Shown: piece by piece, positions 2,896-45,155 of the stretch
Numbering within the stretch: the stretch's first letter is position 1
Layout: each line of letters begins with the position of its first letter
Position numbers and translations under genes: made by a program
Origin: Catajapyx aquilonaris
Lineage: Eukaryota
DNA length: 45,525 bases
NCBI GenBank assembly: GCA_000934665.2
Contig: KZ538828.1
Span: forward strand, 1 to 45,525
Direction: 5' to 3'
The notes under the pieces: generated by a model
What the model was told of the DNA's origin: nothing
Databases searched by the model: none
Seen by the model: the letters and a program-made list of their open reading frames with translations, nothing else

Positions 2896-2900
2896 GTCAG

Positions 2901-4147: not shown

Positions 4148-4160
4148 NNNNNNNNNNNNN
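4148..4160. other. Assembly gap (13 N) after a poly-C run
   Basis: 13 N characters preceded by a C homopolymer at 4134-4147. Confidence 0.99.
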
Positions 4161-7906: not shown

Positions 7907-9904
7907 TCAGCACCTCTTGTCTTCACCGATCTTGAACTGCATAAGTACAATGAGATAGGTGGTCACGGCTGCTGATATCTGTGGAATAAAACGGACACTT
8001 TATAGTTACAAAATAATAAGAGCGGAATTTACTCTACTGTTGCATTGCTCTCACCGAGGTCAACAGGCGGCGATTTATTGAGAAGAAATTTGCGGCTGTG
8101 ATTTCGATAGGGGGACCAGACATCTTTTCCAGGAGGACCTTCATCTGGAAACATACCCCTGACAGTATAGCCATGGTTCCACAACAGCACGGGAACTGGA
8201 CCAAGTCCACTGACCAACCTGTCAACATCCTATAGAAACATTCCCTTGGCACAGTACGAAAAAGGGAAGCCCGACCTTGCCAACAGAACTCATCCATGTA
8301 AGGCACGCAATCAGGTTGGCAGTTTATATTTCTGGATTGAAAATATTTTGCTTATCAGCCAAGTAGGGAACCTGGTCCAGTTTTATCGGTTGCATACATA
8401 CAAAATGACCTCGACTATCAAAATGCCGGCTGAGTAGTATTCAATAAATATAATAACTACTACTGCCTATGACGTGGACAGAATTAGTGCAGGGTATCAT
8501 TACGACTTGTTAACTTACGTGAAAATGGCATTCGTCGGGAAGGGTGTTCAGGTTGACTTGTCGAAGGTCGTCATAAGCAGCGTGAGCCTACATGAGTAAC
8601 TGCAATTATTAGTTTCATTTTAAACTCATAAGGAAAGCACTTTTATTTATGCCCAGGTTTAAGGTTGGGTCGTAAAATCAGGGACAAAAAAGGGTGTTTG
8701 ATGTCAATTCTATCCCATTACACTTTTTTTGGAATGGTTCCTGGGAGTGTACAACCTATTCCTGTCATCAACTCACATGCGCCGGTATGTCACTCAACCC
8801 GACAATGAATGCCGAGACGATGATGACGATGGAGACGGTGGAGAGCAGGACACCGATGGGCAGCAGGTCCCATGGGGAGGGTGCGCTTCCGAAGGTCTCG
8901 ATGCTGGAGTAGATGAAGACGACCAGCACGCAGACTCCGAGGCTGTAGATGAGGACAAAGTACCAGCCGAAGATCCTGCTGGTTGCCTCCACCATCCTGC
9001 ACAGCTGCTGGTGAACCTTGCACAGGCACACCAGCTTCTCCTCCTTGGACATCGTCGTCTTGTCCGGTGGAGCCATTTCTGGTACCAGGAAGGGACGGAA
9101 CTGGGACGTGACAAACTGAGGCTCCTGGTCGTCTTCGTAGGCTCCCAAGAGAAGGATCCGGAGGTGATGGTTGACCAGCCTGAATCGGTGGCCCAGGGCT
9201 TGGGACAGGTTCACGATCAGGAAGACGTGGAAGTGCTGCAGGACAACCTGCAGGAACGCACACGTCTGCCTGGTGACGTGGTCCCAGGTGGACATGGTGT
9301 CCAAAGATCTGTTGTTCCCAAGGACAATCAGAAGCACGGAGAGTGTCCGCATTACGAAGGAGATCATGACGAGCCAGACAGACACCGTGAACTCCTCTCG
9401 AGCAGTGGGCAGGGGTATGTCCATCTCCATGAAGACCTGGTCCTGCCTCAGGAAGGCTCTGACCAGCCTGCAGAAGGCGGAGCAGTGCAAGGTGACGTTG
9501 AGGAAGATGGCGACGACGTGCGCGATGCTGAAGACGACCATGATGGTGATGGCGAACCGGTCAGTGGTGGGCAGGTTGACCAGGAGGGAAGATCCGGCCA
9601 TCATCAGGGCACCAAGGGCCTCGTACATTATGAAGAGGTTGGCCGAGGCGAAAAGGGCGCTCCAGAGGACCTCCCATGACATCCACTTGAACTCCGGTCC
9701 TCTTCCGTGGTTGGTCAGCACGTTCTTGGCCGGACAAGCCCCCAGGACCTTGTTGGCTCTCAGAAGCCACCAGAATATCCGAGGGGCCGGATCATCGCAA
9801 GGTACGGGCCCTTTCGAGCGACGAAACGGGGACAGCAAATGCGCAAACCGGTCCTTCCACACTGAAGGCATCTTCACGACTGAATCCCAGCACCAATCTT
9901 CCAT
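7907..9904 (-). CDS. Gustatory receptor GR1 (~452 aa)
   Basis: Exons 9904-8777, 8587-8519, 8144-8055, 7978-7907; phase-0 GT-AG introns. GACPAKNVL; EITAANFFSINRRLLTS; ISAAVTTYLIVLMQF (GR TM7 motif). Confidence 0.92.
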
Positions 9905-10011
9905 TCGAATAATTGATTTGAAAAAATTACTACGCAGCACGAGTGAAGCGAGGCAATTACATCGATTTACACGTTGACTAAACTATATATACGTATATGA
10001 AAATGAGTGCT

Positions 10012-11545
10012 TTAGGCGTTGCAGTTGGAGTTGACGTCGCTCAGCTTGAATTGAACCAAGACTACAAGATACGTGGTGACAGCTCCGGATATCTGCGATT
10101 AATAAAGGCGGCGCCATGAATAATAAGAGCAGTCTGGTCTGCATGCTTTAGGGGCGGGAAGCCCATTAAAATGGGCCTGCTAGAAAGCCATACTTACGGA
10201 TGTAATTAGACCACGGTTGATGGGAAAGAATCCGGCAGCTGTCACCTCCATGGCTGGCCCTTCCATTTTGCGTATCACTTGCTGCAACTGAAATGAACAC
10301 GTCAGTAAGACGCACGCAATTATCTCGAATCTTAAGTAAAGTTAACCTTGATTTGAATACTGGTCGGAAGGTGAGTCTTGTCCGCCAATCGCAGGTCATC
10401 AGAAGAGTCGCTCGCCTGCGATACATGCTCAGATTTCAGAAACAAAGTTGGCCAAAACAGAATCCCTATACGTACCTTCTCCGGAATTGATGAGGCCACG
10501 TAGGTGATGATGATGATGTGCATGGCCGTGGACACGGCTGTGAGCACGGAGTAGAGCTGGTAGTATCTGGTAGAGTCGTCGATCCGAAACGACGAGTAGG
10601 TCTTGAGGATGACCACCGTGACGTCCTTGGCAAACACCAGCAGAAGGTAGGCCCCACCGATGCGGTTGACCTCTCTGACCACCTTGGTCAAATGGTGGTA
10701 GTAGTCGCAGAGGGAGTTGACCTGCTCCGGTTTGGATGACTGGCTTCGAAGAGTGTCCCTCAAGTTGGAGACGGCCGCTTCGAACCTGAAGTTTGGGATT
10801 AATCATGCATTCGTCTGGAGGAACTAAAAGTCATCATGAGGCATAACCTGTTGGCAATGGCCTGGAAAAATATGAGCAGCGTCCAGGATGAAGGAAACTG
10901 CATCAGTGTGAGGACCGAGACGCAAATGGCAGCCAGCTCCAGCGAGAAGCACTCGTCGTTGTCGCTGCACATGTAGTTGCAGATGACAATGTTGCCTGAT
11001 ATCCGAAGGACAGCACAGAAGAGCAGGGGCAACATGGCGATGTAAAAGTCCTTCTGGTTGGCTACTCTCAGGGTCACACCCGATTCCTTCAATCTGAGGT
11101 CAATCGAGTTCATGTGCCACATCAGGCGACACAGCCTCCGGCACGAGACTATCATGAAGACGAAGTTAAACACTATCGTCGCGACGTCCGTGAAATACAT
11201 CCCTTTCATGGCGTGAAGGTCGGTTTGACCCAGAGGCTCGATGGTCACTTCCAAGACGGCCAGAGTGGTCACGGCGCACTTGTAGTAAATAAGAAGGTTG
11301 ATGGTGAACATGGCCAGGGTCCAGACGAGCTCGGTGGAGAGCCAGGCGAATCTGGGGCCGGCCTCGACATTCCTGAACATGTTCTTGGCCGGAAACAGGC
11401 CCGCCAACTTGCATATCCTGAGGAAGTACCACAGAGAAGGAGACACCAGGTGGAAAGACCTCTTGGACAGGTCTTTTCTGGAAAAGCAGTGTCGAAACAT
11501 GCTGTCTTCGGATGCGTCGGGAAAAGGAACGACTTTGGTTCTCAT
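10012..11545 (-). CDS. Gustatory receptor GR2 (~415 aa) with an extra 62-bp intron
   Basis: Exons 11545-10848, 10785-10476, 10415-10347, 10287-10198, 10092-10012. Removing the GT-AG intron 10847-10786 joins the two ORF-track pieces in frame (ANR-FEAAVSNLRD). Ends ISGAVTTYLVVLVQF. Confidence 0.88.
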
Positions 11546-12230: not shown

Positions 12231-13842
12231 CTACTCCATGGCACTGTGTCCTTCGTCTCCTAATTTGAACTGAATTAAGATTACCAGATATGTGGCCACC
12301 GATCCCATGATCTGAAATATATACAAAAAAATTAAAGTATTTTTTTGATAATAACATCTCTCAGTTACAATCATTGCACAGATTCCTCACCGTGGTAAAC
12401 AGGGGACGATTGACTGCAAAAAACCTGCCCGCTGTTACTTCTATAGGAGCATCTCGCATCTTCTGTATGACAAGTTCCAACTGTAAACAAACTCAATTTA
12501 TCAGTATGATGGATTCGGTTTAAAAGTCACTGAGAACTGACGGAAAATCTGGAGTCTTCCGATAATTCCGTCTTCTTGATGCGAAGGAGGCGATCGTATG
12601 ATGCTCGTGCCTTTGAAAAAAAAAGTTATGAACGACTTTGCTAAGTTTTTGTGTGGAAAATAATAAAACTTTAAATATATGGCTGATTTTCGAATTTTGA
12701 CACTAGATATCTAAAATCGACCAGCAGAATTCCTCTGCCCAGTGGCATAAACCCCTACCGTGTACTTTACAGTTGTTTACTCCCACCCAAGTGCACTTTA
12801 CCTTTTCGGGTATGTGTCCCAAGCCTACAATGAAACAGACGACTTCGACCATGCATATGACGCAATTGGAGAAGAGCAGCAGAGGCAGATTGTAGAGAGG
12901 CTCTCCAGGGATGAATAGGATGACCCTGATGGTGCAGTAGGCGAAGGAAACCATCATGAACAGAGCCAGGAACAGAAGCAGGGCCAGGTAGAGACCGAAC
13001 ACTTGGCTGAACATGTCAACCATGTCGCACACTCTGAAGAATGATTTGCATAACAACACCACTCTCCTTTCTTGCAGGGCTGGCGATGAGGTTTGCTGCT
13101 GCACCGGGCGAACCATGGTGATCAAATGGTCGATGCCGTGCACGTGGTCATCTTCCAGCGGGAAAAGCTGCTTGAAGTGACTGTTGATGATCGAAAAGCA
13201 GGTGGTAAGCAGCCTGGCCAGTGTCAAGAGAAGGAGAGCAGGAAGCATCTGGAGGCTGACCACAGCAGGCCAGATGGCGAGCAGGAAGAGGGACGCTGGT
13301 GACATGGTGTCGACGGAGTGCATTGTCGCGGCCGAGATCAGGATGAGGGTGACAGTGCGGATGGTGCAGGTCACAAACAGCAAGCAGGCTGGAGTGGTCA
13401 GCCCCCGCCTTTTCATGTGGTCACTTCTGAAGAAGGCGCGTTCACGGAAGAGGCTTCTGATCAGCGTGCACAGCATTTGACCGTTGATGACCCCGTTGGA
13501 AAATATGGCCGTGAAGTGGGTGATGTTCATTGTGGCCATTAGGTTGAGGAGGAACCAGTCCGTGGTGGTCAGCGAGCTTATGACGACACTCGCGTAGGAC
13601 TGGATGATCCGGCATGATTCGAACACGACCAAAGAGCTTGAGGAGAAGTACAGAGCACTTGCACACACTTCCCAGGACCACCTTGAAAAAGTGGGGCCAA
13701 GTTCGTGGTGGTAGAACACATTTTTGGCAGGAAAGAACCCAGCGATTTTGCAGGCTCTCATTATGAACAGGAGAAGACGAGATGAATAGGGGACGATGTT
13801 AGCCCTGGAACCGGTCTTAGGAGCATCCATGCCTTCCATCAT
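12231..13842 (-). CDS. Gustatory receptor GR3 (~426 aa)
   Basis: Exons 13842-12802, 12610-12542, 12480-12391, 12311-12231. GFFPAKNVF; EVTAGRFFAVNRPLFTT; IMGSVATYLVILIQF. An upstream in-frame ATG also exists. Confidence 0.92.
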
Positions 13843-14343: not shown

Positions 14344-16014
14344 TCAAGGGCCTTCCCCGACTTTGAACTGAATTAGTATCACCAGATAAGTGGCCACAGC
14401 TCCTATTATCTGCAAGAAGAAAACGTGAAACTTTCCTTTACATTGCCTGTCTCATGTAATTCCACCGACTGAAGAGTAAAAGACCTATACTCACATTAGT
14501 CAAGAGACGCCGATTCACAACGAAAAAGTTGGCAGCGGTCACTTGGACTGGAGATCCTGCAATTTTCCTCATCACCATATCCAGCTGAAATAGCAATGAT
14601 TTTTATCATGTTGTAATAGTACAGTATGTTGTCACTCTGAAGAGTCTGAAGTACGGTATCATACAGGTCTTCATACAGCTATACTTACATGAAACTTGCA
14701 ACTCTCGGTTAATTCCTTGGTCTTGTTTATGCGGATTAAAAGGTCGTAACAACCTCGAGCCTGTAAAAAATAGTAAGAATTCAAAAACCGCTGCACTCTT
14801 CGACTCAAATCAACTAATTTGGTGGCTAAAATGTCAAGAATAATTATTGTAAATTATTATCAATGTCATTGCCATTAATCATGTGGCAGCATGGTATTCA
14901 TGCCTTCAACAGTGTACCTTACCTCGTCGTATATGTTTCCCAGTCCAATAGTCAAGCACACGATTTCGACCCCATAAAAGACGCTGGCAGACATGAAAAG
15001 CAAGGACATCTGGTACAAATCCCTGTCGGAGAAGTATATGGTCACGTTGACGGTGGAGTACACGTGAGACACAACCATCACAACTCCCAGGAAGAAGACT
15101 GCGGCCAAGTAAAGTCCAAACGCGCGGCTCAGCTTGTCCACGGAGTCGTTCAGACGGAAGTAAGACCTGCACAGAAACACCAGCTTCTCATCTCTGGTCG
15201 GTTCTGGAGGCGAGGTGTCCATCAGGTTCAGTTCTTGGTCATCGCCTAGCAGCAGCTGTTCAAATTGATGATTGATGGTCGAGAAGGATTGGGACAAGTG
15301 CTGGGCCAGGGAAAATATCATCAGGGAAGACAGCATTTGGTTGCTGATCACCAGAGGCCAAACTCCTAGCACGAGGTAGGATGTCCAGGTCATGCTGACC
15401 AGCTGCATTGTTGTGGAGGCGAGCAGTGCGAGGGTCACGAACCGCAACAGTCCGGCCAACAGAATAGAGCAGAATAGAGCGGTTAGCTGACCTCGCAGGT
15501 TCGGGAGGTCAAACCCCATGCTGATGAACAGCCTGCTGTGACCCAACATATCTCTGATCAAGCTGGACATCATCGTACCGTGAACAGTCGCGTTGACAAA
15601 TGTGGTCACATAATGAGCCATGTTCATGACCAGTATGAGTATGGAGAGAAACCTGTCCGTTGAGGTCAACCTGAACGGAACCATGACCTCTATGCCCTGC
15701 TGGATCAGGTCACAGGCTGCGTAAATAATGTATGTGCTGACCAACATGTGTAAGGCACTTGCGCACACTTCCCAGGACCAGAGGGTGAAGAGTGGTCCAT
15801 CTTCAGGGTGTAGGAAGACGTTTTTGGCAGGAAAGACACAGCCTATTTTGCACACATTCAAGACCCACTGTATCAAGCGATCTTGACTATTGCACTTCTT
15901 GGAAGATGTCTTTAGATCCCTGTCTTCCACCTGGATTGTCACAGAAGCCATTCTTTTGCGTAAATCCGAAAGGCAGGCTGTGCTGGTGCAGACAAAGCTC
16001 TCCGTGAGAGCCAT
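14344..16014 (-). CDS. Gustatory receptor GR4 (~418-439 aa)
   Basis: Exons 16014 (or 15951)-14923, 14760-14689, 14584-14495, 14409-14344. GCVFPAKNVF; QVTAANFFVVNRRLLTN; IIGAVATYLVILIQF. Confidence 0.92.
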
Positions 16015-16390: not shown

Positions 16391-18078
16391 CTACTTCTCA
16401 CCACCTTTGAACTGCATGACCACTACTAGGTACGTAGTCATTGCCCCTGTGATCTGAAAAAGAAAACGAGCGTATTACTGCATAGGTAATTCATGTATAC
16501 AGCTATATAGTAAGACACCCATACCGCAGTGAGAAGTCGTTGGTTGATGGAAAAGAAGTCTGTCGCAGTGATTTCTACTGGTCGCGAATTATGCAAGCTT
16601 AGGATATGGGCACCCTGAAAGGGATCGCCAAATTGAAATATTAGCGCATTTTCTGCGAGTCTGGGATAAATTAACGTCAATTCAGAAAATAGCGTGAATC
16701 ATTTTCACGGCCCACAGAAAGGTGGCTGTTAGACTTAGTTCGTATTTGTGCAAGGACAACGTAGCAGTAGACTATTGTAGTAATTTTAAATAAGTAAGTA
16801 ATAATTATTTCAACTATTGCAATATATTGTAATTACTCACCCGACCGGGACACACATCCAGGTTGTGCAAAATCCTCACTTGCATCACCATGTCAAGTGC
16901 CTCTTTAGCCTGAAAAATAACCACTAATAAAGAGAGCTGATCATATTGAAGTAAAAACACAAGGTGTGTCATAATGCCTTTGACAAAATTATGAAGCGAG
17001 TTCTTTGGCACCAGAGGTTCACTTTATGTAGGGAGGTTATTACTGTATTTGACCTTACCTTACATGGTATGTCGCTCATTCTCAAGGTGAATGTGACCAG
17101 GTGAATTATTATCAGTAGGCCGGAGGAGAAGATGGCAAATCTAAACTCCCAGTGATCCACGAGGGTGTCTCTCTCGAATAGTTGGATGCTCCAGTAAGTG
17201 AAAACCACCATCAGAAACAGGAAGAGTCCGTAGTGTCCAGCGAGGTACCAACCAAATATTCTACTAGAGGAGCTAACCATGTTGCTCAAATCGAAATAAG
17301 CCCTAGAGAAGAATTGTACCAATTCTGGGTTTGTCGTGTCCGTTTCTCCTTCAGTGTTCAAGTCCTCCATCCAGGTATCGCGAATGCGTCTGCTGATGGC
17401 ATCAAATCGCTGAATCAGAACTTGGGCCAGTGCAAATATGGCCAGTCCGGGTATGGAGTGCATAAATAATTCAAACAGCGTGCATCCTCTCACAATGATG
17501 GACAGGGTTAATCCATAGCCCAAATCTGCATCGGACATGGTGTACGTGTACGGCAACACAACCAGAACTTGCAACACAGGAATACAGGCGAAAATGCTCC
17601 AGTACAAGTCGAGCTCTTCCTTGATGCCTATCGGGAGTTTGATTTCAAACCGCTTGAACCGATGGTCCAGCTGGACCAGCCTCCTTATCAGGTCGCAGAA
17701 TTCGGCGCAGTGAACCATCATGTTGACCAAGTTTATCCAGATGTGCGCTACGGAGGCTACTCTCGACGTTTGGACGACAAAAGAGTCCGTGGTGTAGTTT
17801 CCAAACAGGCTGGAGCCAGTCTTGTCGTAAAGCTTGTGGGCTTCGAAGTTGAAGTAGGTGGTGGCAATGACCAGGAGAAGGCTCCAGGCCACTTCCCAGG
17901 ACCACCACTTCATCCGGACATGCTCCTCTTGCCGAAACACATTCTTGGCAGGGAAACCTCCCATGACCTTGCTCACACGCAGGGCCATCCAAAATATTCT
18001 ACAGGTTGGCCCTCCAGCTGGGGTCGAACCCGCGTTCCTTTTCAGACATCCGCCCAAACTGTTCAGAAGCCACGACAT
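16391..18078 (-). CDS. Gustatory receptor GR5 (~413 aa)
   Basis: Exons 18078-17059, 16909-16841, 16614-16525, 16453-16391. GGFPAKNVF; EITATDFFSINQRLLTA; ITGAMTTYLVVVMQF. Confidence 0.92.
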
Positions 18079-32111: not shown

Positions 32112-32268
32112 ACTTAGATGGTTTCACTCCCATAATCAGCCAAACAACCAAGTGACGATATTGTGTAAAGGCTGCAAAACATTATTGCCAGGAAGACATA
32201 TCACACAATGCCGCAATGTGGTACGCAGAGGGGAAAAAAACTACAATGTAACAAAGGGAGACATATTT

Positions 32269-32345
32269 GGAGGCCGTTATGCACAAAGGAACCAGGTGTA
32301 ATGGGAGTCACATTACACCTGGTTCCTTTGTGCATAAAGGCTTCC
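32269..32345. mobile_element. 77-bp hairpin mini-MITE with 4-bp AWTT target duplication
   Basis: 35-bp arms (2 mismatches) around a 7-nt loop GGAGTCA, flanked by ATTT and AATT. Copy B has the empty site GACAT-AATT-ATGACAG (~25554-25569). Confidence 0.85.
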
Positions 32346-33299: not shown

Positions 33300-34842
33300 T
33301 CAGGAGTCGTTCATGTCGAATTGCAGAAGAACTACCAGGTAAGTAGTAACAGCTCCAGCAACCTGTTAGGAGAATTTTAAAAGAGCATTACATGTCACAA
33401 AAATACAGTACGTCGTACAACGGTAAATGCGAAATACTGGGAACTCACTGAAGTTAGGAGGCTTCGATTGATGCGAAAGAGACCTAACGCAGTTATTTCA
33501 AAGTCAGACTTGGTCGACATCTTCTTCAGCAACTGCCAAATCTGGAATTGGCAAACATTGTTCTGAGATTACAGCCTTCAGTCATTCCTCTCCTCTCTAA
33601 GAATAAGGAACACCTCACTATGTTCTTGTACTGTGGTGGTAGCCATCTGATGTTTGTCAAACGAATGCTGTCGGCAACCTGAAATCGTAGAATTCACATG
33701 ATACTGCAGGACACACTAATTCGTTAATTGCACTTTTTCAGCAGCCTAGGCTGAGATAACATAATTCACATGAACAATATATTATGACAATAATGAAGGC
33801 AAATAAGTGATCTGCAAGGTTGGTGTACCTGTCTTGGAATTTCAGCCAGGATCCAAGTGAAGGCAATCAACTGAATGACTGCGCTCGCCGACACTGCCCA
33901 GTTGATCACACTCCAAAGCAACATTTGTGAATCGCTCAAAGACGCATACTTGATGCCCTGATACGCCGCTATGGTCACTTCGAAAATCTTCTGCACATAA
34001 AGGTAAATCAAGGAAAACCCGAAAACGTTGCTCATCTTCGCCACCAATCTTGGGATGCTATGCAAGATGTCGCACATCTCCACAATGGAGATGAATTCGC
34101 TCCGGCCAAGAGCTTTTTGCGACTTGTAGCTGAGCTGGTCCCTTAAGGTCACGGTCACATTGTCAAGCTTGCGACCCAATTCTTGTACCACCAAAGCAAG
34201 TTCAATGGTCGCTGGAAACTGAATTACATTTAAAACGAAGAACCAGAAAAACCTGCCGTACTCTCCATCAAATCCGCTCATTCCAAGCGAAGCAAGGAAC
34301 ACGCAGATTTTTATCACCATGCCCAAACTCAGCATAATAAAACTGATCGGAATATGACGCTTCTGGGGCAGCATGACCATTTTCTCTTCCATCTCCACAA
34401 TTTGGCTAATTAACGAGCATACTGTGGGACACGTCATTACCATGTGAAGCATGTTCCAGGCACCTCCGAATGTGACCTGGAAACAGTATAGTTTCATGAT
34501 GGCAGCGGTGGTTGGAGACACGGACCCATTTTGGGTCCATTCGTCGGTTCGATGCAAAGAGACGACAAGGCTCCATCCGAAAGCAGGGAGGGAAACAATC
34601 ACGACGACAAAGCTGAACAAGGACTCCCAGGAACGCAACACGAATCGCGAGCCTTTATGAACAGAGCCAAATAGATTTTTGGCGGGAAAGAGGCCCACCA
34701 CTTTGCACATTCGAAGAAGCCAAAGCAAGCAGTTGGAGACGGCCATTCTGTGATAGAATAAAGGAGTCTTCAGCAATTTTAGATTCAGAACGACTTTCGT
34801 AAGACTGCCTCGTACGTGAGTATAAGTGTTTCCGATAGTCAT
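33300..34842 (-). CDS. Gustatory receptor GR9 (377 aa, or 409 aa from upstream ATG), triplicate copy C
   Basis: Exons 34842 (or 34746)-33829, 33678-33619, 33541-33449, 33362-33300; VAGAVTTYLVVLLQFDM. Confidence 0.92.
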
Positions 34843-35604
34843 AATGGCCTGGATGTGGTGGAGATGACAAAGACGAGTAATGATTTCCTCTGAGAGCTGT
34901 CACTCAACAAAGCGTGTAAACGTCAACGTACGCCTTTCCATCAAGTAAAAGATTACCGGGTGTAGTCCTTTAATAATCATAAAATGTTTTGTGTAAAAGC
35001 GTCATGCCAGTAATGGACACGTTTTTCCATGTCCTTTCTCTGGAGGATGAACCTCTATGATGATAATGAATGTGGGGGAAAAACTTCATAACCCTCAAAA
35101 GTGTGAATTTTCAGGAGAGTGAATTGAAGTTTGCACTCTTATCACAAATCATATGGAATGTGGGTTTGATCTAGTCCGTGTTGCCGTCTTGCGCATGATA
35201 CGTGAACTTGGGGTATAATATAAAACTGTTTCTTTCATAGTTGGTACCTGTTCAGGTCAACAAATTGACAAAAATGAGGGTTATGAAGTTTTCCCACCAC
35301 ACCCCTCATGATGAACAGAAAATTATTAATATTTCCAATAATTGCGATAGTGCCCTTTGTTGGTACTGGCAAGAATCGTGTGGTGCGTCGGACTATATTG
35401 GACTACGCCTTCAATAATCAATTACTGTGTCCATAAGGGCGTCATACAAAGCTGTGATCCTCAACAGGCAACTTTTGTCGCTGTAGATTCTATTAGTCGG
35501 AACAGACCTTGACAAACCTGGTTTCAGTGTCATTGTGGCCAAAACCACCTTGAACTTGACAGTGTGCATATATAGAAAGGCAGCCTCCTTTTTGGACATC
35601 AAAA

Positions 35605-37134
35605 ATGCCCGTTTCTGGCTCTCTAGTCTGGTTTCTTCGAGTCTCCAAGGCTCTTGGTTTATTCCCTGCCAAAAATGTATTTGGCAATGTCAGTCGGGGA
35701 CCTCTCTTTTCCCTGCGGTCCTGGGAATTTGCATACAGTTTCTTCGTCCTGATGATCTCTCTCCCTACTATCGGATGGGATCTGTTCAAATGCTTGCGCG
35801 TTGGTAGCCAGTCATCCACAAATGATACGTACCTTCCCACAATGTCTCTAACCACTAGGTCATTTTGCTACCAGGTCACACTTGGAGGTGCCTGCAACCT
35901 GATTCACATGGTGTTTACATGCCCCGCCATTTGCATGCTGATTCGACAGTTCATGGACCTGGATTTTAAGTTGCGTAATATCGGACATCCCCTGCCCTGG
36001 AGGACACAACACTGGAAAAGTCTAATTGTTCTGATTCTGGCCACGGGTGCCAAGATAGCGGCCAATTACTTCATGATATTCGGGGACTGGGAATATCTGA
36101 AAGATAATTGCACACAATATTCAATGCATGCCTTGCTCGTGGTGCTTCAGGTTCCGTCAATACTACAGATTGTCCTCATTGGCAAAGCACTAGGAATTAG
36201 GTTCGGGCATGTGAACACCACCTTGAAATATTTTCTCCGTCGAAACATGGCAACACAAGATGGCAAGAATGAGTGCTCCAAAATTAACAATTTGTGCGAC
36301 ATTTACCACAACTTAATCCGATTGGTGCCCGAGATCAGCAGAATTTTCGGCTTTTGCTTGATATTCACTTACTTGCAAAGATTTGTTGAAATAACAATAT
36401 CTGCATATATGGTCGTGAAACATTTAGACGACACAAACATATGGAGCTGGGGCTTGGTGTTCTGGGCATTAGCTACGACGTCAGTGATTCAGTTGACTGC
36501 ATTTACCTGGATTTTGGCGGAAATTCCCAGAATGGTACCTTGCATTACTTTTTGCATATTGTTGATGCGTACTTCAGTCATGTTTTTGATGGCGGGAAAT
36601 ATGCAATTTACATAATTATAGTACAATAACTATACTTTCTTCTATTTCAGGCAGCATCTGCTTACGATGACATTCGTCTGTCAGACATTAGATTCCTTCC
36701 GTCAGAGTGCAAGTACAAAGTACGATTATTCATTATCTTTCCTTAATATTATGTGTTCTATATGCAGAACTCTGCAACTGTTGCAGTGTAATATGCAGTG
36801 TAAGAATTTGCACTCAAACTGATGGAATCTCTCATTGTCGCAATTTATTGAACTTTACAGATCGCGCAGGTGCTGCAGACAATGTCTAATAGGCCATGCG
36901 CTGAAGTGACGGCTTTCAATCTGTTCGGCATCAGTCGAGGCCTGTTAACCGGGGTAAGTTTTTGCACTGCATTACATGTACAGTACAATAATAAAGTAAT
37001 TCTTATGTGTATTCGGTCTATGCACTTTTGTTAATTTTGGCATCTCTCATTGGCAGATGGCAGGAACTATCACTACTTATCTGGTGGTGCTGGTGCAATT
37101 CGACATGGGCGACAAGCCGAAGAGCTCTCCCTGA
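35605..37134 (+). CDS. Gustatory receptor GR10 (~389 aa), head-to-head with GR9
   Basis: Exons 35605-36534, 36651-36719, 36861-36953, 37057-37134. GLFPAKNVF; EVTAFNLFGISRGLLTG; MAGTITTYLVVLVQFDM. Confidence 0.92.
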
Positions 37135-37361
37135 GTTTTATTTTGTGTTCACAGCAAGATGTGTTTCCGTCTGTGTCAGTGGGTTTAAAAATAGCTCTAA
37201 CTTCATTTTTATAAGTGTGAAGTTGAAAATGACATGTTCTCTTTCAGTGTACTTCACCTACAATATTGTAATAGCCGGTGTCGCACCCAGAAGTCTGTGC
37301 TCGAAGAGAAACAATTAATTCCCTCATACGTATAGTAATAGTAACATTGACAATCTTCTGG

Positions 37362-37755
37362 TCAGTGTGAAGCAGAATCCGAATACGACGGATACTGCTC
37401 ACGTCCGCCACCAATCTGGTCAGCGTGTGATAAACATATAGCATAGCTCGTTAATTTTGAAGCCAGATGACGGTTGCCATCAGTTGTCCGGCTGCGACTG
37501 ACCTGACCAATCAGGACTTTTGTTGCATGTGCGCACCTGTTTTCCAAAGTATGGCCAACCAGAATCACGTGGATGACCTCTGGGAACGGAATAAAAATTA
37601 CTATGCCCATCAATAGGCGTAATGCATACCATTCTTGAAACTGTTCTCTTTGCTTCATCACTGTCAGCAAGGAATACAGCAAGGCAGACAACTCAGTGGC
37701 TATTGTGACGAGCATCAAAATCAGGCTTGGCGACATCTCCATTTTCCATCGAAAA
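37362..37755 (-). pseudogene. Gustatory receptor fragment (GR12-like, mid-exon-1 only, frameshifted)
   Basis: RWKMEMSPSLILMLVTIATELSALLYSLL...VIHVILVGHTLENRCAH aligns to GR12 RWKSEMSPSLILVVVAVSTKVSAFLYPLL...VIQAILIGQALEKRFAH. Continues in another frame as VYHTLTRLVADVS. No start or 3' exons found. Confidence 0.85.
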
Positions 37756-38278
37756 GCATGGGTTCAGCATTATAACAATGAGTCCGGGTTTGGGGTGATG
37801 GATACTGATACACACAGCTCTTGAATATCGAGCAGGACATTATGCGTCGAACAATAGCCATAATGGTCGCTATTATTCACAATGACAAATCGATTTTCAA
37901 TTCGCTGCGATTGAACCTAATTGATTAACCTTTGGAGTGACTTTGATTCATTTTGCTTTATTTACGCCAGCACGTATAAAAAGAAATTCGCCATATTTGA
38001 CAAACATTATTGGCATCCCCAATTCCATTACCATCGTATATGTTGGATTCAGCATTACTACAGCGCAAAGCGTGCAAAACAGCAATTATTAGAATAATTA
38101 TTAACAGTATGTGTGATGTAAGTCCACTTTTAATGGGTTTTAGTAAATTGTGCACGCCTTTTGCCGCCTTTTGTACGGAAGAAGAGTGATCTTAACAATG
38201 AAGCATGCCCCAGTGTTTTATAGCAATTCATGTGTATATTTTTGCGCGTCTTGCAAACCCTCTCATAGCTCAGCATCA

Positions 38279-40041
38279 TCATTGACCTAAGTTATACGCC
38301 GTATTATTTGTACTGTTGTACTGATGGTTCTGTCCATTGTTGTCTCGTCCTGATTCACCGACACGGAACTGCATTACGACCACTAGGTATGTAGTGACTG
38401 CTCCAGTGATCTGCAGACGGAAGTGATTAAATAATACAAAGGATTTTCATCACAGCCTATGGCTTCAATAACTTACGTTAGTGAGAAGTCGTCTGTTGAT
38501 GGAGAAGAAGTCAGCAGCTGTGATTTCCACAGGCGAAGTGTACATCGAATCCAGCAACAATTCGGCCTGAAATAATTCCCACGAGTCAATGACTCGATCA
38601 CGCTCTAGGTGTAATTAGACCCAGCACTTACCCTCGCCTTGCTCTCATTTCGATTCTGGAGCAGTTTAAGCTTGACTAGGGTGTCGCGAACAGCCTCAGC
38701 CTGAAAAGAGGAGGACATATTAGCATAATAACAAAATTATCAATCGATCAATCATTGCAACACTATTTCCTGTAATACACCAATTCAATGATATAAGGGC
38801 TTACAAGGGTGGTGCACCAAAATAAACAGCAGTAAAAATGAGAGAATAAGAGGCAATAAGAGAATCCAAATCTCCTAAAATAATAAATGCACCGAATATA
38901 TTGTCAAATATTTCCCAAGTATCATGTCTTATAATATGCAGAAGTAGCTGCAATGTAAATATTTACGAGAGTCATACTATGTTTAAAATCGCTGTACCTT
39001 ATGCGGTACCTCGCTCAAACTAATGGTGAAGACCAGAACTTGGATGATGCTGAGTATGCTGATGGAGAGTATGGCGAGCTTGAATTCCAGATGGTGGATG
39101 TTGATGATCCCAAAAAGCTGTATGGTCCAGTATGTGAAGACAACCGTCATGAAGACAAACAGGCCGTACATGACCACCAGGTACGCTCCGAATATCCTGC
39201 TGACCGACATGACCATCTTGCGCAGGTCCAAGTACACAGAGGTCCAGGACTGCAACTCGTCTCTGCCTGTTTGGTCCATCATCAGGCTCGTTTCGGTCGC
39301 AGAAGACGAGTCCTGACTTATTTCCTGACCATGCAGGTGCTTCAGGACCAATTCAAATCTGGAGACCAGGACTTGGACCAGCATAAATATGGTCAGCCCG
39401 GGCAGGAAGTGGGTCAGAGTTGAAAAGGCGGCAGAGGCCTGCATGAATGCGACCTCGGACGCGTCGGTCCAGAAAATTCGATTCACACTAAGAAAGACCG
39501 AGTTGGTGAGCAAGTGCACTCCCAGCAAAGCGGAGTACACCCACATCGGAAGGGTCATTTCCTCCCTGATCCTGCTCGGGAATTTGATCCCCATGCGTCG
39601 AAGCCTGTCGTCGAGCTGGACCAGGTCGTGTATGAGGTCACAGAACTGGGTGCCGTAGACCATCATGTTGGCAAAATTGATCCAGATGTGCGCGGTGCTG
39701 ATCACTGAGGATATGATGCACATGGCCGAATCTGTTGTTGAACTTCCGAGAATATCGGAACCAGCCATCCCGTACACCTCATGTGCCCTGTAGTTTGAAT
39801 AAGTGGCCAACACCAGAAGGGATAAGCTCCACACAACCTCCCAGGACATCCTCCGCATCCGAACAGGGCTTTTCCTGTTCATAAACACGTTCTTGGCAGG
39901 GAACGACCCGAACACCTTGCTGGCACGTAGGGTCATCGAGAGGACACCGGGTCGTGGGTACGAGCTGGGATCAGAGGGGACGGGGATCGAACCCACGTCC
40001 CTTTTGAGGACACAGCTGACCACACGCTTGCAGAGTGTCAT
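38279..40041 (-). CDS. Gustatory receptor GR11 (~444 aa), inverted paralog of GR6
   Basis: Exons 40041-38998, 38700-38632, 38566-38477, 38410-38279; ITGAVTTYLVVVMQFRVGESGRD. Confidence 0.92.
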
Positions 40042-40771
40042 CCTGGGAATGTGACTGGCGACTGCAGCCTTCTCTTTCCCAAAATAGTTTCATCATCGTA
40101 GAGACCCAACCCCAATTACGATAATGCCTCTTGCATCAATCTGTCGCCAAAAGATTAGGCGTATCGTGTCTCCAACCGGTAATCAGTAAGAGTGTCACGC
40201 AAAATGCGGCCCTTTTTAACCATTTAAAAATGACAAAGTCCCATGCAAATATGAGGTAAATCTTCAAAGTACAAGATGATTATTATCGTGTACACATTTG
40301 GTTAATTGACATCTTCGTTAATAAAGTACGTGTATGAGTGTGTACTGTCCAAGTAAATCCGCGTAAAATTATTCATCAATTCATCTAAACCTTCTATAAA
40401 AATTAATGAAAAGAAAATATACACGAAGAAATGGCATCGAAGTGAGCGCGTGCCTACTAATGGAATTAAATATCATAAAGAGCAATCAATTCTGCCGCCC
40501 TTATATGAGGAATAATTTATTCTCCCTAAGCAACAAGCAGTACATGTGGAAAATCAATTCGCTTTAATAACGAGCGATTCTCGGATCGTGGCAAGTGCCA
40601 TTGTGATATGGTTCACGGTGACACACGACGTTTACAAAAATCGGACAACGCCCACTATTTTTCTAAATGAAAAGACGCCAGCGTTTGACATCCAAGTGCT
40701 GCGTATAGTGCTGTACAAATGAGAAGAAATTACTTGAAGCGTGCCGGTTGCACCGTAAACACGAGTCCAGC

Positions 40772-42649
40772 ATGGGCTTGGCCAAAACTGGAAACGTGAG
40801 GCAGTTCGTAAATGTCAAGATGAGCAGGAGGTCACTCTTCCGCGAAATGTTGCCAGTGTCCAACTCTCTCCTCTGGTTTCTTCGAGTTTGCAAGTGCCTG
40901 GGCCTTTTTCCGGCCAAAAATATCTTCGGATGCGTCCATCGAGGACCACTCTTTGTCCTTCGTTCGCGCGAGTGCTTGTTCGGCTTTTTAGTCGTGGCCA
41001 TCTGCTTGCCTGGGTTCGGGTTCGAAATGGTCTCATCTCTCCGACGCACCAGAGAGGCAGTGGCAAATTACTCCAGCAGTCCCATGACCACGACAGTACT
41101 GGAGTCGTACACCTTCCAGCAAACTGCTGCAGCCACGTGGAATCTCCTCCACATGGTCTTGTCCTGCTCAGCCCTGTGCACCTTCATCAGGAAATTGATG
41201 GAGCAAGACTTTAAGTTGAGAAGTGCTGGAATTCCGCTGCTGCGATGGAAAAGCGAGATGTCGCCGAGCTTGATTTTGGTCGTTGTCGCCGTGTCCACTA
41301 AGGTGTCTGCATTTTTATATCCGTTGCTGTTAATGCCTTGGGGAGAAGCGTCGCAATATGGTGAAGCAATCGACCGATTGTTGTTCGGAGTCATAATTTT
41401 GAATCAGGTACCGGCAGTGATTCAAGCCATTCTGATTGGCCAGGCTTTGGAGAAGAGGTTTGCACATGTCAACAATGCCTTGCTGGATCTTGTTCGTCGC
41501 AGTCACACATCTGGATGGAACCGAGATGACTTCAGAATCCACGAGCTGTGCGACGTGTACCACGGCCTGACAAAATTGGTGTCGGATATGAGCAGAATAT
41601 TCGGATCTTGCTTCACCTTCATTTACGCTAAGGAGTTGATCAATATCACCTTCTCAACGTACGTGGGGATTAAATTTATGTCTGCCTCGCCCGACATTTG
41701 GAGAACTTGGTCTATACTGAACTGGGTGATGTCTGTAACTTCTGCTATCCTGTTGGCTGCACTCACTTGGAAAATAGCGGAAATACCGAAAAAGGCAAGA
41801 GTCTATTTATTCTCGATTTATAAGTTTACTGCATCTAATGGGTAATGTAAATATTGTCGCACTTTTCCAGGCAAGATGTGCTTATGATGATCTGCGTGTT
41901 ACGAGCATCCAACAACTTTCAACAAATTGTCAGCAAAAAGTGAGTTTCTAAGCGCATTTAATGTTGTAATAATCCAGGTCGTTTCATAATGAATTAAACA
42001 AACTTTAATGTTGAAAATAATTTAGAGGCACAAAAGGATCCCTTAATGTTGAGCTTTTCTGCATCCGTTATAATCTTGTAACCAAGATAATAATGGGCTA
42101 AAACGGAAGACAAAACACATCACAGCATCTCTATACTTTAAACTGAAATATAAGAGCTAGTCTATTCTATAGTTATGAGTTGCTGGTATTATCCGAGGTG
42201 ATGGAAATGTCGTACGCTGTATCTGCGACAGATACGATGGTGTAATACACGCATTGATCAATACTGATTATGAGTAATGAGTCTAAGATTGGTCTAAGAA
42301 GACCGAATTAATGCTCTTGCACTTTCCTTATAGAAGTTTTCCCGAATAAATATGAAACACCCTGTATACTGCATAGAATCACTTGACGTAATTTGCAAAT
42401 GTATACTTGCAGATTGCTCAGTTGTTATTGGCAATGTCGGACCGATCTAACGTCGAGGTGACAGCCATGGATCTGTTCTCTATAAACCGTCGCATGCTAA
42501 CGTCGGTAAGTACAGTACGATTACAGTTTGTCTCCTTTTAAAGCGAATATGCAATATTTTCTACATCTATCGGTGGTCTTTCGCAGATTGCTGGCGCCGT
42601 CACGACGTATCTCGTAGTTTTGCTCCAGTTCGACATGAGCGAAAAGTAG
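40772..42649 (+). CDS. Gustatory receptor GR12 (~415 aa), head-to-head with GR11, probable GC-AG first intron
   Basis: Exons 40772-41794, 41871-41939, 42413-42505, 42587-42649. GLFPAKNIF; EVTAMDLFSINRRMLTS; IAGAVTTYLVVLLQFDM. AATAAA at ~42656. Confidence 0.9.
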
Positions 42650-43595
42650 TACACTAATAAATATACTATTGTTGGAAATATGTAGGCTGGGCACATAACA
42701 AAAATAGTCGTTGTAATTAATACACTAACTTTTATCAGTCAAAACATCTAAATAGCTTCTCTAACAGTGTTACCTTTCTTGTTGGATATCAGTTTAAAAA
42801 TCACTGTTCCCTATCACATTCTATTACAAGTAGGAGCATTAAAGTAGTCAAACACTACCTCTGTGAAGGTCAAATTATACTCCTTTAAGTGTCGGGGTCA
42901 AATAGTCGACTGATGGTGAAAGGTGACGGCCAGAGCTTGTTGAAGCATGTAAGCTGATCGCAAGAGCAAAATTAATAATCACATTGATTTGATGGAATTA
43001 CGTTCACGTCGTCAAAGTCGCTGGAAAACTTCCCCAGTGAATTTTTAAGCAGCCAAGTGCCCGAAATAAGGTATTTACATTCCACGCCCAGTTTACTTTG
43101 TCCGTTGATTCTCTTTCATCATCCTGTTTACATACACCGGGGCTGTACTTTGACCAAACGTCAATACCCGGACATGTGTTTGTCACATGACAAGTCCCAT
43201 TTCTGGGGACAGGTGGGAATGAAAAGGTATACTGAAATGTTCACAAATAATTTCGTAAAAGTGGGGCCGGGTTTCAGCTAATCGACCCATAAAAGTGCAG
43301 GACAAATGAGACTACTCTGTTGCAATGAGGTTTCCGTGTAACAATCTTCCGATGAATTATGGACGTGCTAAGTTCATGCATTCAGCCATGCAGTTTGTTT
43401 CATAAGTTGATTCCCTTTATGGTCGAGCACAATACAATTTTCGAATGACAGATGCGTCCTTAGATGCCATTGTCAACCTCGACGTTGCGTGTGCAAGGTA
43501 AATTGCGGCTTACTTATTGACGGAAACCACTAATGAAATACGCACTTGACCAGTCTCATTTCTTATAGGAACGGGTTGTGTCATATGGAACAGAG

Positions 43596-45155
43596 ATGTT
43601 CGCAAAATGTTTCGGAAAGGTGGCCCATCTCAAAATCGAAATGGAGAGACCGGCCATGGTTGAAGTGGTTCCAGCTGACCAGTGCAGCCCTAGACATGGC
43701 CACCGGCAGTCACCAACAGTGTCGCCTCCTCTCCTCTGGTTCCTTCGCGCTTGCAAATTGGTCGGTCTTTTCCCAGCCAAGAACGTGTTTTCTGACATCC
43801 ACCTGCGACCGCGATTCAAGCTGATGTCTGCAGAGACCGTCACCAGCTGTGCGATCTTGACTCTTCTGATGGCAGGTCTCGCTTGGATCCTCACCAGCAG
43901 CTTCGGGCAATGGAACAATGGATTTCTTAAAGCCCAAGGGAACATGTCCACCAAGACAATTGTGTTGATGCAGGTGCAGTGCTACCACATCACATTCGGA
44001 GGGATGTGGAACGTCCTGCTCATGGTGCTCACCTGCCCTGGTCTGTGCTCATTGTTGAGAAGGATCTTGCAGGAGGATGAGGAGGCTAAGACGATTGGAC
44101 TTGCTCTAGAGAGCCGGAAGAGTAAGCTATCTCCTACTCTGACCATCTTCTTCTTGGGCGCATTTGGAGAATTTGCCAGTCATGTCCATTCCCTCATACT
44201 GTTGTGGCCGCGCCTGAGCATGAACCAATCTGATGCCGCCAAAGTTGCATGCATGTTTATTCTGATCTCGGTTCAGTCCCTAGCAATGTCGCAACTAGTT
44301 ATGTTGTTCCGAGATATGGAACTGCGATTATCTGTGGCCAGCCAAACTCTGGTCAAACTAATTAGACGCAGCATCAACAGCAGTGGATCAGGTGGCAACA
44401 ATGCTAGTGGAATCAGTGCCACTTGCAACATTTACCATAACATGACGAGCCTGGGTCACAGAGCCAGTCGTACATTTGGGCTGTCCCTCGCGCTGATGTA
44501 CATAGAAAGGGTTGTCACTACCACTTTCTCGGCCTATCGCGTCATCGGGATAATAGCATCAGAGTCGTGGAGCATTTCAGCAGTCAGTCACTGCGTCAAA
44601 CTCTTTTGTCGTGTGGTCACACTATCAGCGTTCACGTGGAAGGCGGCGGATATTCCCAGACAGGTAAGCACTCATAGTTTTTTGAAGAAAAATAAACCTA
44701 TACACACACATCTTCAGTCATTGTCATTGGCACTTTAATCAAATGCAGGCAGTGTCAGCTTACGACGAGATTCGTCTGATGGACATAAGCAGTCTTCGGT
44801 CAACATGTCAGATGAAGGTAAAGTCGAGGACATTATTTTATTAAACATACGTCTTCTACTAATACCGAGATAACAGCATGGCGTCATACACACTTATGAA
44901 TATCGTTCAGATATCTCAAGTGTTGCAGACCATTGTCTGATTCCACCCGCGTAGAGGTGACGGCCTGTCATCTGCTGTTCTCCGTCAACCGTCGTCTGCT
45001 GACAGCGGTGAGTAAAAATTATTCAGCAACGTGAGCTCTGATATGAATGGTTTATGGAACAAAAACTTCTCTTCTTTTAGACACCCTGTATGCAGATAGG
45101 TGCTGCTGTCACCACACATCTCCTAGTGCTTCTGCAATTCAACGTTAATGGCTAG
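43596..45155 (+). pseudogene. Gustatory receptor GR13, probable pseudogene (frameshift in exon 3)
   Basis: Exons 43596-44663, 44749-44817, 44911-45007, 45096-45155. Exon 3 is 97 nt versus 93 in relatives, giving TGA at 44938-44940. The TM7 motif is altered to TTHLLVLLQF. Confidence 0.75.

Follow-up and report, generated by a model that had tools for sequence, protein, structure and literature searches.

A 45,525 bp stretch of Catajapyx aquilonaris DNA on contig KZ538828.1 (hereafter 'the window') contains 13 intact gustatory receptor (GR) genes, paralogues of one another that form a tandem array. We believe that the array arose by repeated local duplication and that a strictly kept N-terminal 'PAKN' segment in its products forms the S0–S1 hairpin of a constrained protein core; we put the probability of this overall reading at roughly 0.85. 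The genes (G1 to G13) are neighbours within a 37,249 bp interval (positions 7907–45155), the ends of which coincide with the stop codons of G1 (7907) and G13 (45155). The initial annotation had described 13 GR genes in ∼37 kb, and our models agree with it in number and in both ends. After splicing, each of the 13 genes gives an open reading frame, of 377–452 amino acids, and the 40 introns (59–473 nt) have 39 GT donors and one GC donor (in G12), together with AG acceptors at 40 of 40 sites. The start codons of the models are provisional.

The first five genes all lie on the reverse strand: G1 (7907–9904; exons 9904–8777, 8587–8519, 8144–8055 and 7978–7907; 452 amino acids, PAKN codons from 9733), G2 (10012–11545; exons 11545–10848, 10785–10476, 10415–10347, 10287–10198 and 10092–10012; 415 amino acids, PAKN from 11392; introns of 59–105 nt), G3 (12231–13842; exons 13842–12802, 12610–12542, 12480–12391 and 12311–12231; 426 amino acids, PAKN from 13731), G4 (14344–15951; exons 15951–14923, 14760–14689, 14584–14495 and 14409–14344; 418 amino acids, PAKN from 15831) and G5 (16391–18078; exons 18078–17059, 16909–16841, 16614–16525 and 16453–16391; 413 amino acids, PAKN from 17952). 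G6, on the forward strand (18468–20268; exons 18468–19493, 19833–19901, 19971–20060 and 20143–20268; 436 amino acids, PAKN from 18609), stands head-to-head with G5, their start codons being 389 bp apart.

Three genes of 377 amino acids each follow on the reverse strand: G7 (22009–23451; exons 23451–22534, 22389–22330, 22252–22160 and 22071–22009; PAKN from 23391), G8 (29621–31072; exons 31072–30155, 30001–29942, 29864–29772 and 29683–29621; PAKN from 31012) and G9 (33300–34746; exons 34746–33829, 33678–33619, 33541–33449 and 33362–33300; PAKN from 34686). The remaining genes are G10 on the forward strand (35605–37134; exons 35605–36534, 36651–36719, 36861–36953 and 37057–37134; 389 amino acids, PAKN from 35665), G11 on the reverse strand (38279–40041; exons 40041–38998, 38700–38632, 38566–38477 and 38410–38279; 444 amino acids, PAKN from 39900), and G12 (40847–42649; exons 40847–41794, the one followed by the GC donor, 41871–41939, 42413–42505 and 42587–42649; 390 amino acids, PAKN from 40910) and G13 (43641–45155; exons 43641–44663, 44749–44817, 44921–45007 and 45096–45155; 412 amino acids, PAKN from 43773), both on the forward strand.

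One long exon and three short ones, the arrangement first ascribed to every gene, are found in 12 of the 13; G2 has five exons, its long exon being interrupted by an additional phase-2 intron of 62 nt (10847–10786). The three 3′ introns are in phase 0 in every gene (39 of 39), as had been claimed. Exon 2 is shortest in G7 to G9 (60 nt) and longest in G4 (72 nt); in the other nine genes it measures 69 nt. For exon 3, the lengths given earlier are correct at 90 nt (G1 to G6 and G11) and 93 nt (G7 to G10 and G12), while G13 departs from them at 87 nt: its acceptor is a canonical but unusual AAG, and a 93-nt version would require a non-AG acceptor. The last exon begins six codons before the TY of the TM7 motif in all 13 genes. 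That motif reads TYhhhhhQF (h, hydrophobic) in 12 of them and TH-h5-QF in G13, with T, Q and F invariant. The residue after QF is K or R in G1 to G6 and G11, D in G7 to G10 and G12, and N in G13; the split between QFK/QFR and QFD/QFN genes therefore stands as originally drawn, with these residues encoded by exon 4 rather than exon 3. A phase-0 intron lying six codons ahead of the TM7 motif, and three C-terminal phase-0 introns, are reported for Daphnia and insect Grs in the part of PMC2680840 used here, and the proposal that TYhhhhhQF and the three 3′ introns are ancestral GR features matches that description.

Pfam matches, the TM7 motif, intron positions and predicted fold together support the assignment of G1 to G13 to the arthropod GR family, as the initial annotation had it. 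With the long exons as queries, nine of the 13 exceeded the 26.6-bit cut-off for 7tm_7 (PF08395): G1 (56 bits), G2 (28.5 bits, on the second piece of its divided long exon), G6 (47.9), G7 (37.9), G8 (41.2), G9 (35.4), G10 (46.1), G11 (43.2) and G12 (46). The long exon of G13 scored 19 bits (E = 9.6e-4), below the cut-off, and those of G3, G4 and G5 gave no 7tm_7 match at E ≤ 1; given these gaps, these four genes are assigned to the family by paralogy, by the TM7 exon and by their gene structure. In G1, the last exon by itself aligns with positions 354–368 of the 370-position 7tm_7 profile. A profile built from the 13 long exons matched Gr43a among PDB sequences (E = 0.003), and it gave 52 distant matches; 20 of these clusters were looked up, and all six that carried an organism name were arthropod GRs. 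The nearest ESM Atlas clusters to G6 were likewise arthropod GRs (score 0.96). No close relative of the G1 to G13 proteins was returned by any sequence search.

AlphaFold2 models were built from exon 1, which spans S0 to S6, S7 being encoded by the short exons. The G10 model (pLDDT 89.2, pTM 0.86) superposed on 11 solved GR entries with Z-scores of 21.8–22.9 and rmsd values of 2.9–3.2 Å over 287–294 of 310 residues, the best score being to Gr43a (22.9). Nine OR/Orco entries gave Z-scores of 15.7–20.9, and the next unrelated chain scored 8.0. All 11 GR entries thus outranked every OR/Orco entry, although by a margin over the best OR of only ∼1 Z unit. For G1 (pLDDT 74.5), the top Foldseek matches were insect GRs, and every match listed down to rank 22 was an insect GR, OR or Orco chain. 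Each gene would encode one subunit of a seven-helix channel of the GR/OR type, of which S0 to S6 are modelled here. By homology, such subunits would form tetrameric ligand-gated cation channels in chemosensory neurons, in which S7b with its TYhhhhhQF motif would line and gate the pore and the outer halves of S1 to S6 would form the ligand pocket.

We also considered other identities for these proteins. An odorant receptor or Orco identity was rejected, since no long exon matched 7tm_6 at E ≤ 1 and the fold lies nearer to GRs. The sole match to the insect sugar receptor family (Trehalose_recp, PF06151; cut-off 21 bits) was that of G8, at 10.4 bits (E = 0.25). The TPY motif on S5, described in the relevant part of PMC11100771 as a conserved mark of the Gr43a/BmGr9 subfamily, is present in none of the 13 proteins, which argues against membership of that fructose-receptor subfamily. 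Nothing in the analysis pointed to an orthologue among receptors whose ligand is known.

In a tree of the 13 genes and 38 outgroup rows, G1 to G13 are monophyletic (SH-aLRT 99) and contain two subclades (supports of 97 and 99). The two clades anticipated from exon 3 are thereby upheld, except that G2 is not placed in clade A and has no resolved position. G3 falls inside the G1 to G13 clade, with G4 as its sister (SH-aLRT 99; 41% identity); G5 groups with G6 and G11 at 100; and G13, the most divergent gene, is basal in clade B. G7, G8 and G9 are three copies of a ∼3.7-kb unit that was triplicated recently, and G6 and G11 are inverted duplicates with 83% amino acid identity; at the DNA level, the segmental duplicates are ∼91% and 80–89% identical. 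A decayed GR fragment lies on the reverse strand at 37467–37751 (tblastn, 48% identity to residues 133–227 of G12, E = 1.2e-18); neither a PAKN nor a TM7 portion could be located for it, and it continues only in another frame. Old splits, a triplication, an inverted duplication and a decayed copy fit birth-and-death evolution, the history originally proposed for the array. Lineage-specific tandem expansion is presented as the normal mode of arthropod GR evolution in the parts of PMC5850775 and PMC2680840 drawn on here, and the array itself is therefore to be expected.

It is possible, if unlikely, that part of the array is non-functional, made up of open copies that are unexpressed or decaying, with G13 and the recent G7 to G9 as the candidates. 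The dN/dS ratios are 0.46–0.50 in young pairs (0.18–0.35 in old ones), and G13 combines its TH, its AAG acceptor, its 87-nt exon 3 and its sub-threshold Pfam score. The relic at 37467–37751 is one clear case of decay, and none of the listed sequencing runs that hold this stretch is on record as RNA. On the other side, no frame is interrupted over its 377–452 codons and the splice sites are intact in all 13 genes, dN/dS never reaches 1, and every gene retains the invariant motif residues and the gate Q and F.

The array encodes a second strongly conserved element near the N-terminus, a K-x5-PAKN ... S-x-E signature in which the K, PAKN and S-x-E are each present in 13 of 13 genes. The initial annotation had given a longer signature as common to all; its further positions are kept in nine to 12. 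These are the R (12; N in G4), the G at K+3 (12; shifted in G4), the F preceding P (12; C in G1), the V or I following PAKN (11; M in G2, L in G9), the next F (12; L in G1, which reads C-PAKN-VL), P-x-F (nine; S-x-F in G9 and V-R-M in G5, G6 and G11) and SWE (10; STE in G2, SRE in G12 and SAE in G13). Paralogues are otherwise diverged, most pairs being 20–44% identical (median 25%), with the exceptions of G7 to G9 (90–92%) and the G6/G11 pair. Among 10 non-redundant genes, a 12-residue span over the motif has a conservation score of 0.80, which only TM7 exceeds (0.83), and of the 17 columns that are invariant and not Met, seven fall between K52 and E78 (G1 numbering).

Within the motif, different genes use different synonymous codons (four for Pro, both for Lys, both for Asn, and Phe codons vary too), which indicates constraint on the protein. 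We therefore regard it as highly improbable that the uniformity of the motif reflects gene conversion among the tandem copies, or an element acting as DNA, for example a regulatory sequence within the 5′ coding part, instead of selection on the protein. In favour of that reading, the genes are in tandem and some copies are recent, and the motif Ala codon is GCC in all 13 genes, though GCC already makes up 42% of the Ala codons there. Against this, besides the varying Pro, Lys, Asn and Phe codons, the flanking residues differ, dS in the older pairs is saturated (1.3–2.4), and identity outside the motif is 20–44%, where conversion tracts would leave longer stretches of identical DNA.

Returning to selection on the protein, the predicted structure offers a place for the motif. 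In the G10 model, the S0 helix (residues 5–16) is followed by a β-bridge between residues 23 and 34 that pairs the K of PAKN with the L of GPLF, and S1 runs from residue 40, beginning at the W of SWE. The PAKN block has pLDDT values of 90–94, DSSP assigns a single β-bridge rather than two full strands, and the lower-confidence G1 model has no strand at this segment. A β-hairpin between S0 and S1 is already known from BmGr9 (Frank et al.), where its presence across the GR family was inferred as well. The PAKN segment maps onto this known hairpin, and the signature stretch K-x-x-G-x-F-P-A-K-N-(V/I)-F ... G-P-x-F ... S-W-E would span three elements, namely the last part of the intracellular S0 helix, both arms of the S0–S1 hairpin and the first part of S1. 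The hairpin of solved GRs links the ligand-binding bundle with the cytoplasmic anchor domain. It would belong, in the present clade, to a constrained intracellular and pore core that also includes the S5 'SRIFG', S7a 'FFxINRxLLT' and S7b motifs, the rest of the protein presumably diversifying for ligand range.

The segment had also been suggested to be clade-specific. It is kept with particular strictness, but seven of the 52 distant GR matches have a K-x-x-G-h-x-P core at their N-terminus, and an ostracod GR outside the clade has an FPLKNV variant followed by G-G..RF..WS, so the element predates the G1 to G13 expansion. A single control clade of 10 library matches (median identity 33%), several of which match named tenebrionid-beetle GRs, scored 0.63 over the S0 region, its sixth-best span. 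Conservation of this region within a subfamily is thus not unique to G1 to G13, only stronger there. The suggestion is only partly supported: the PAKN segment is not wholly clade-specific, and what is particular to these genes is how strictly it is kept.

The same observations bear on the suggestion that PAKN is a clade-specific assembly or trafficking determinant, either a co-assembly interface or a site for a conserved cytosolic partner. In a clade with a median identity of 25%, the segment is conserved almost to the degree of the pore helix, and more than the corresponding control region; it is also cytoplasmic and close to the anchor domain where subunits of solved GRs touch (as described in the parts of PMC11100771 and PMC12635824 used here). 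The occurrence of the core and of FPLKNV outside the clade speaks against such a role, and the other most conserved spans are also intracellular or in the pore, as general structural constraint would have it. We think a clade-specific determinant doubtful, and prefer to read the hairpin as part of the constrained core.

A wider and quite speculative idea is that a P(A/L)KN hairpin marks an unrecognised GR subfamily, perhaps shared with ostracods, and is tightly kept as an obligate interface. Such an interface could serve heteromeric co-assembly of clade members or the attachment of a cytosolic partner that is itself conserved, and the hairpin would then be a second functional GR signature motif besides TYhhhhhQF, which a 2025 review names, in the part cited here, as the only one (PMC12635824). 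At the level of conservation, the S0–S1 hairpin is already a second segment kept nearly as well as TYhhhhhQF in a clade otherwise ∼25% identical; if it acts as an interface or gating link, it would offer a simple mutagenesis target in the GR structure. The 13 intact models, which include both old and very young duplicates, are a usable set for studying diversification of ligand range.

The ionotropic receptor (IR) to which the array had been linked is present as an IR-like open reading frame (variant ionotropic glutamate receptor; positions 1–1611, forward strand) that is open at the 5′ end of the window. It lies 6.3 kb from G1, with a fibrinogen-domain reading frame and a protein-kinase gene between them, and the linkage is one of proximity only. 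Its Lig_chan score is below the Pfam cut-off (24.7 against 30.8 bits); phmmer matched it to GluK5 in the PDB at E = 5.4e-12 (232 chains at E ≤ 1), and its nearest ESM Atlas clusters are arthropod Lig_chan/IR-type proteins (score 0.97). Judged by these similarities, its product is an iGluR homologue.

Among known systems, the lineage-specific Gr subfamilies of Daphnia pulex (Penalva-Arana, Lynch and Robertson 2009, PMC2680840) are also non-insect arthropod GRs. As characterized in the portions of that study considered here, they resemble the present genes in having an N-terminal hydrophobic cluster with a few conserved residues, and in forming subfamilies that have no orthologue in insects and are accompanied by degenerate pseudogene copies. 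In 49 Daphnia genes, a shared phase-0 intron sits mid-gene; G1 to G13 lack it, their long exon being uninterrupted save by the phase-2 intron of G2. The solved insect GRs BmGr9 (8vc1, 8uvt), DmGr43a (8jm9), DmojGr43a (8zdz) and DmGr64a (8jme) have the same S0–S6 fold, an intracellular S0 helix followed by the S0–S1 hairpin, and the TYhhhhhQF pore motif, at only 11–17% sequence identity to the G10 model. A GR of the ostracod Darwinula stevensoni (CAD7243421.1/A0A7R8X493) is the second-best profile match (E = 6.8e-11) and the best that is named. It is annotated as an 843-amino-acid model containing two GR copies, has L for the A of PAKN and is of low overall similarity, and it falls near the G1 to G13 clade weakly (SH-aLRT 80, with long branches). 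Its N-terminal K-M-L-G-L-F-P-L-K-N-V ... R-F-K-A-W-S, and the G-G-P-R-F-R-Y-C-S-W of its second copy, nevertheless align with the PAKN signature, and TY..QF is present in its TM7.

A stop-to-stop ORF scan of the window located 13 long ORFs at 8.7–44.7 kb (eight on the minus strand and five on the plus), each with the peptide PAKN, part of the signature K-x-x-G-x-F-P-A-K-N-(V/I)-F ... G-P-x-F ... S-W-E, close to its start. Full models, numbered G1–G13 along the window, were built by joining each long ORF to short in-frame downstream exons flanked by AG and GT. All 13 spliced frames are open and encode 377–452 amino acids (start codons are provisional), and the outermost model ends, 7907 and 45155, are identical to the array limits given in the initial annotation. 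The 40 introns range from 59 to 473 nt (median 88); every acceptor is AG and 39 of the 40 donors are GT, the single GC donor belonging to the first intron of G12, at 41795.

The proposed architecture of one long exon followed by three short ones was found in 12 of the 13 genes, with the three 3' introns in phase 0 throughout (39/39), as had been described. The long exon of G2, on the other hand, is interrupted by an additional 62-nt phase-2 intron, and the frame is broken without it. Three of the four G2 introns measure 59–62 nt and the remaining one 105 nt; those of its paralogues are mostly larger (61–473 nt). In nine genes exon 2 is 69 nt long; the exceptions are G4 (72 nt) and G7–G9 (60 nt). 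The annotated lengths of exon 3 were recovered for G1–G6 and G11 (90 nt) and for G7–G10 and G12 (93 nt), but not for G13, in which this exon is 87 nt; a 93-nt version was rejected, as its acceptor would be non-AG. The TM7 motif (TYhhhhhQF, of the pore helix S7b) and the residue after its QF had been placed in exon 3 and are instead encoded by the last exon, where TY sits six codons in for all 13 genes. The grouping drawn from that residue was correct: it is K or R in G1–G6 and G11, D in G7–G10 and G12, and N in G13. This gene structure fits the gustatory receptor (GR) family. Three pairs of genes lie head to head, with provisional start codons separated by 389 bp (G5/G6, 18078/18468), 858 bp (G9/G10, 34746/35605) and 805 bp (G11/G12, 40041/40847), and these intergenic spans are possible shared bidirectional promoter regions.

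We examined family membership with several searches. When the long exons were compared with the Pfam 7tm_7 profile, nine of 13 scored above the cut-off, while G13 fell below it and G3, G4 and G5 gave no match; the last exon of G1, 23 residues long, aligns with the final part of that profile. When all 13 long exons were combined into one profile and compared with the PDB, Drosophila Gr43a was matched (E 0.003), and the ESM Atlas clusters nearest to G6 are arthropod GR clusters. An exhaustive profile search of 1.84 billion representatives returned 52 hits at E ≤ 1e-3 (best 71.8 bits) and none at E ≤ 1e-30, that is, distant relatives only. Twenty of the 52 hit clusters were looked up, and all six that are named are arthropod GRs, from Darwinula (1), Zophobas (3), Tenebrio (1) and Cephus (1). 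Word-indexed protein searches gave no match for the G1 long exon at E ≤ 0.001 or for the 13-sequence alignment at E ≤ 0.01, nulls that do not count as evidence of the proteins standing alone. Orthology to Gr43a was rejected, the TPY motif of that group being present in 0/13 genes, as was orthology to sugar receptors, since Trehalose_recp matches none of the 13. As far as tested by these two markers, the array genes lie outside the GR subfamilies of known ligand.

Structure prediction was applied to two long exons (G1 and G10), which cover helices S0–S6; we infer S7 from the exon that encodes the TM7 motif. The G1 model, computed from an alignment of its 12 paralogues only, reached a pLDDT of 74.5, and among the Foldseek matches listed for it insect GR, OR or Orco chains occupied ranks 1–22. 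The G10 model, with 46 further sequences in its alignment, reached a pLDDT of 89.2 and a pTM of 0.86. In structural alignments it matched 11 solved GR entries with Z scores of 21.8–22.9 (rmsd 2.9–3.2 Å over 287–294 of 310 residues) and ORs or Orco with Z scores of 15.7–20.9; the next unrelated chain scored 8.0.

A tree was computed from the spliced proteins of all 13 genes, 36 library hits (300 aa or longer) and both halves of a Darwinula stevensoni (ostracod) model that holds two GR copies; shorter hits and hit P0018 were left out, and the search was a quick one with many long outgroup branches. In this quick tree G1–G13 form one group (SH-aLRT 99). Both clades proposed in the initial annotation were recovered, as G1/G3/G4/G5/G6/G11 (SH-aLRT 97) and G7–G10/G12/G13 (99), except that G2 took no resolved place. 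Self-comparison revealed a gene-bearing segment of ∼2 kb in three copies of ∼91% DNA identity (G7, G8 and G9), a tandem unit of ∼3.7 kb that includes G8 and G9, and an inverted duplicate, G6/G11, with 80–89% DNA identity across a distance of 20 kb. Values of dN/dS are 0.46–0.50 in the young pairs (G7–G9, G6/G11) and 0.18–0.35 in older ones, for which dS is saturated. Between G10 and G11, a decayed fragment on the minus strand (37467–37751) is 48% identical to residues 133–227 of G12; the rest of the gene is missing, with a continuation only in another reading frame, and the fragment is a fourteenth, dead GR copy. Taken together, the clade, its subclades, the young duplicates, the dN/dS values and the relic reproduce the birth-and-death pattern described for arthropod GRs by Eyun et al. 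(2017; PMC5850775), and fit the birth-and-death expansion proposed for this array.

The array had also been linked to an ionotropic receptor (IR). An IR-like gene of the divergent iGluR family is indeed present 6.3 kb away (1–1611, plus strand), but it is a neighbour rather than a member of the array, because a fibrinogen C-terminal globular domain ORF (2793–3233, plus; Pfam E 7.5e-27) and the exons of a protein kinase (5107–6838, minus; Pkinase at 6202–6681, 37.3 bits, and 5420–5659, 45.2 bits) separate it from G1. A word-indexed protein search with the IR ORF gave no match at E ≤ 0.001, which again does not count as evidence of this protein standing alone. The fibrinogen ORF is overlapped in another frame by an ORF (2702–2920, plus) with weak leucine-rich-repeat matches below cut-off, and an intergenic assembly gap of 13 N lies upstream of the kinase gene, at 4148–4160.

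Among the listed sequencing runs that contain the stretch none is RNA, and four are DNA runs of a single study, possibly the one from which this DNA came. Contig cover was examined over 25526–45525 in three runs and consisted of DNA contigs only, which does not bear on expression; one of the three gave a single 235-nt contig, on a repeat. Depth was ∼500–2400 at 25526–26192, 32196–33529 and 44869–45525, and 25–170 over genes; the very deep stretches mark dispersed repeats. The segments 25559–26102 and 32346–32890 are 97% identical, and the AT-rich region at 26–29 kb (GC 0.34), which lies between G7 and G8, lacks a long ORF. In two DNA runs from the same sample, a single contig per run joins 30073 to 33821, skipping 3747 nt (approximately one G8/G9 repeat unit), with just 30 nt on the short side of the joint; this may reflect a copy-number variant or assembler collapse of the 93%-identical repeat.

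Pairwise identity among the paralogues is mostly just 20–44%, and seven positions of the PAKN signature (K52, P58, A59, K60, N61, S76 and E78 in G1 numbering) are invariant in the alignment of the 13 long exons. In the full-length alignment, the 27-residue PAKN stretch holds seven of 17 invariant non-Met columns, and among ten non-redundant genes its 12-residue window scores 0.80, with only the TM7 window higher (0.83). The pattern had been reported for all genes; scored element by element, the best-kept parts occur in all 13 and the least-kept in nine. The Pro, Lys, Asn and Phe codons of the motif vary from gene to gene, which places the constraint at the level of protein and led us to reject gene conversion as the source of the uniformity. 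Within the PAKN codons (9733–9722 in G1), Ala is encoded by GCC in every one of the 13 genes, a small oddity given that GCC accounts for 42% of their Ala codons overall. Further windows among the most conserved are S7b, S7a (FFxINRxLLT) and an ‘SRIFG’ stretch, taken to be S5 from its location after the long loop.

In the G10 model, a helix spans residues 5–16, pLDDT across the PAKN region is 90–94, a beta-bridge links residue 23 (K of PAKN) with residue 34 (L of GPLF), and the first long helix begins with the W of SWE (residue 40). In BmGr9, according to Frank et al. (2024; PMC11100771), an intracellular S0 helix is accompanied by an S0–S1 beta-hairpin that further connects the anchor domain structurally to the ligand pocket; those authors inferred conservation of the hairpin in GRs from a single pair of covarying positions in a set of 1,854 GRs. 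Because of the G10 model and this description, the signature reads as a predicted S0 end (K-x-x-G), two hairpin arms (F-P-A-K-N-V-F and G-P-x-F) and an S1 cap (S-W-E). In solved GRs, as described in PMC12635824, elements of the S7b, S7a and S5 type are part of the pore or intracellular anchor. The hairpin would then be part of a constrained cytoplasmic and pore core, with the remainder of the protein diversifying; the PAKN segment might also have the specific role in assembly or trafficking suggested for it. We conclude that the GR gene array is real and well preserved, with the S0–S1 hairpin conserved clade-wide.

The pattern GxFPAKN[VIM]F occurred 127 times in a scan of metagenome contigs, and no occurrence encodes a relative. 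By titles and abstract openings, we found no paper on a PAKN motif in gustatory receptors, and none of the FPAKN matches concerned receptors. The motif had no match in one supplementary file of Eyun et al. (2017), in two files of the Tetranychus paper (one more was outside the search) or in the searched part of the Strigamia supplements (50 of 57 files outside); since these supplements were covered only in part, curated GR sets may still hold it.

The conserved segment had been suggested as a possible clade-specific determinant, and part of it proved older than the clade. A K-x-x-G-x-x-P core is N-terminal in seven of the 52 distant profile-search hits, and in a single control clade of ten library hits (median identity 33%, several matching named tenebrionid-beetle GRs) the S0 window scores 0.63 and is the sixth best kept. 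What is unusual in these genes is how strongly the element is conserved, not that it exists. The Darwinula GR carries F-P-L-K-N-V followed by R-F-K-A-W-S, and its second copy G-G-P-R-F-R-Y-C-S-W.
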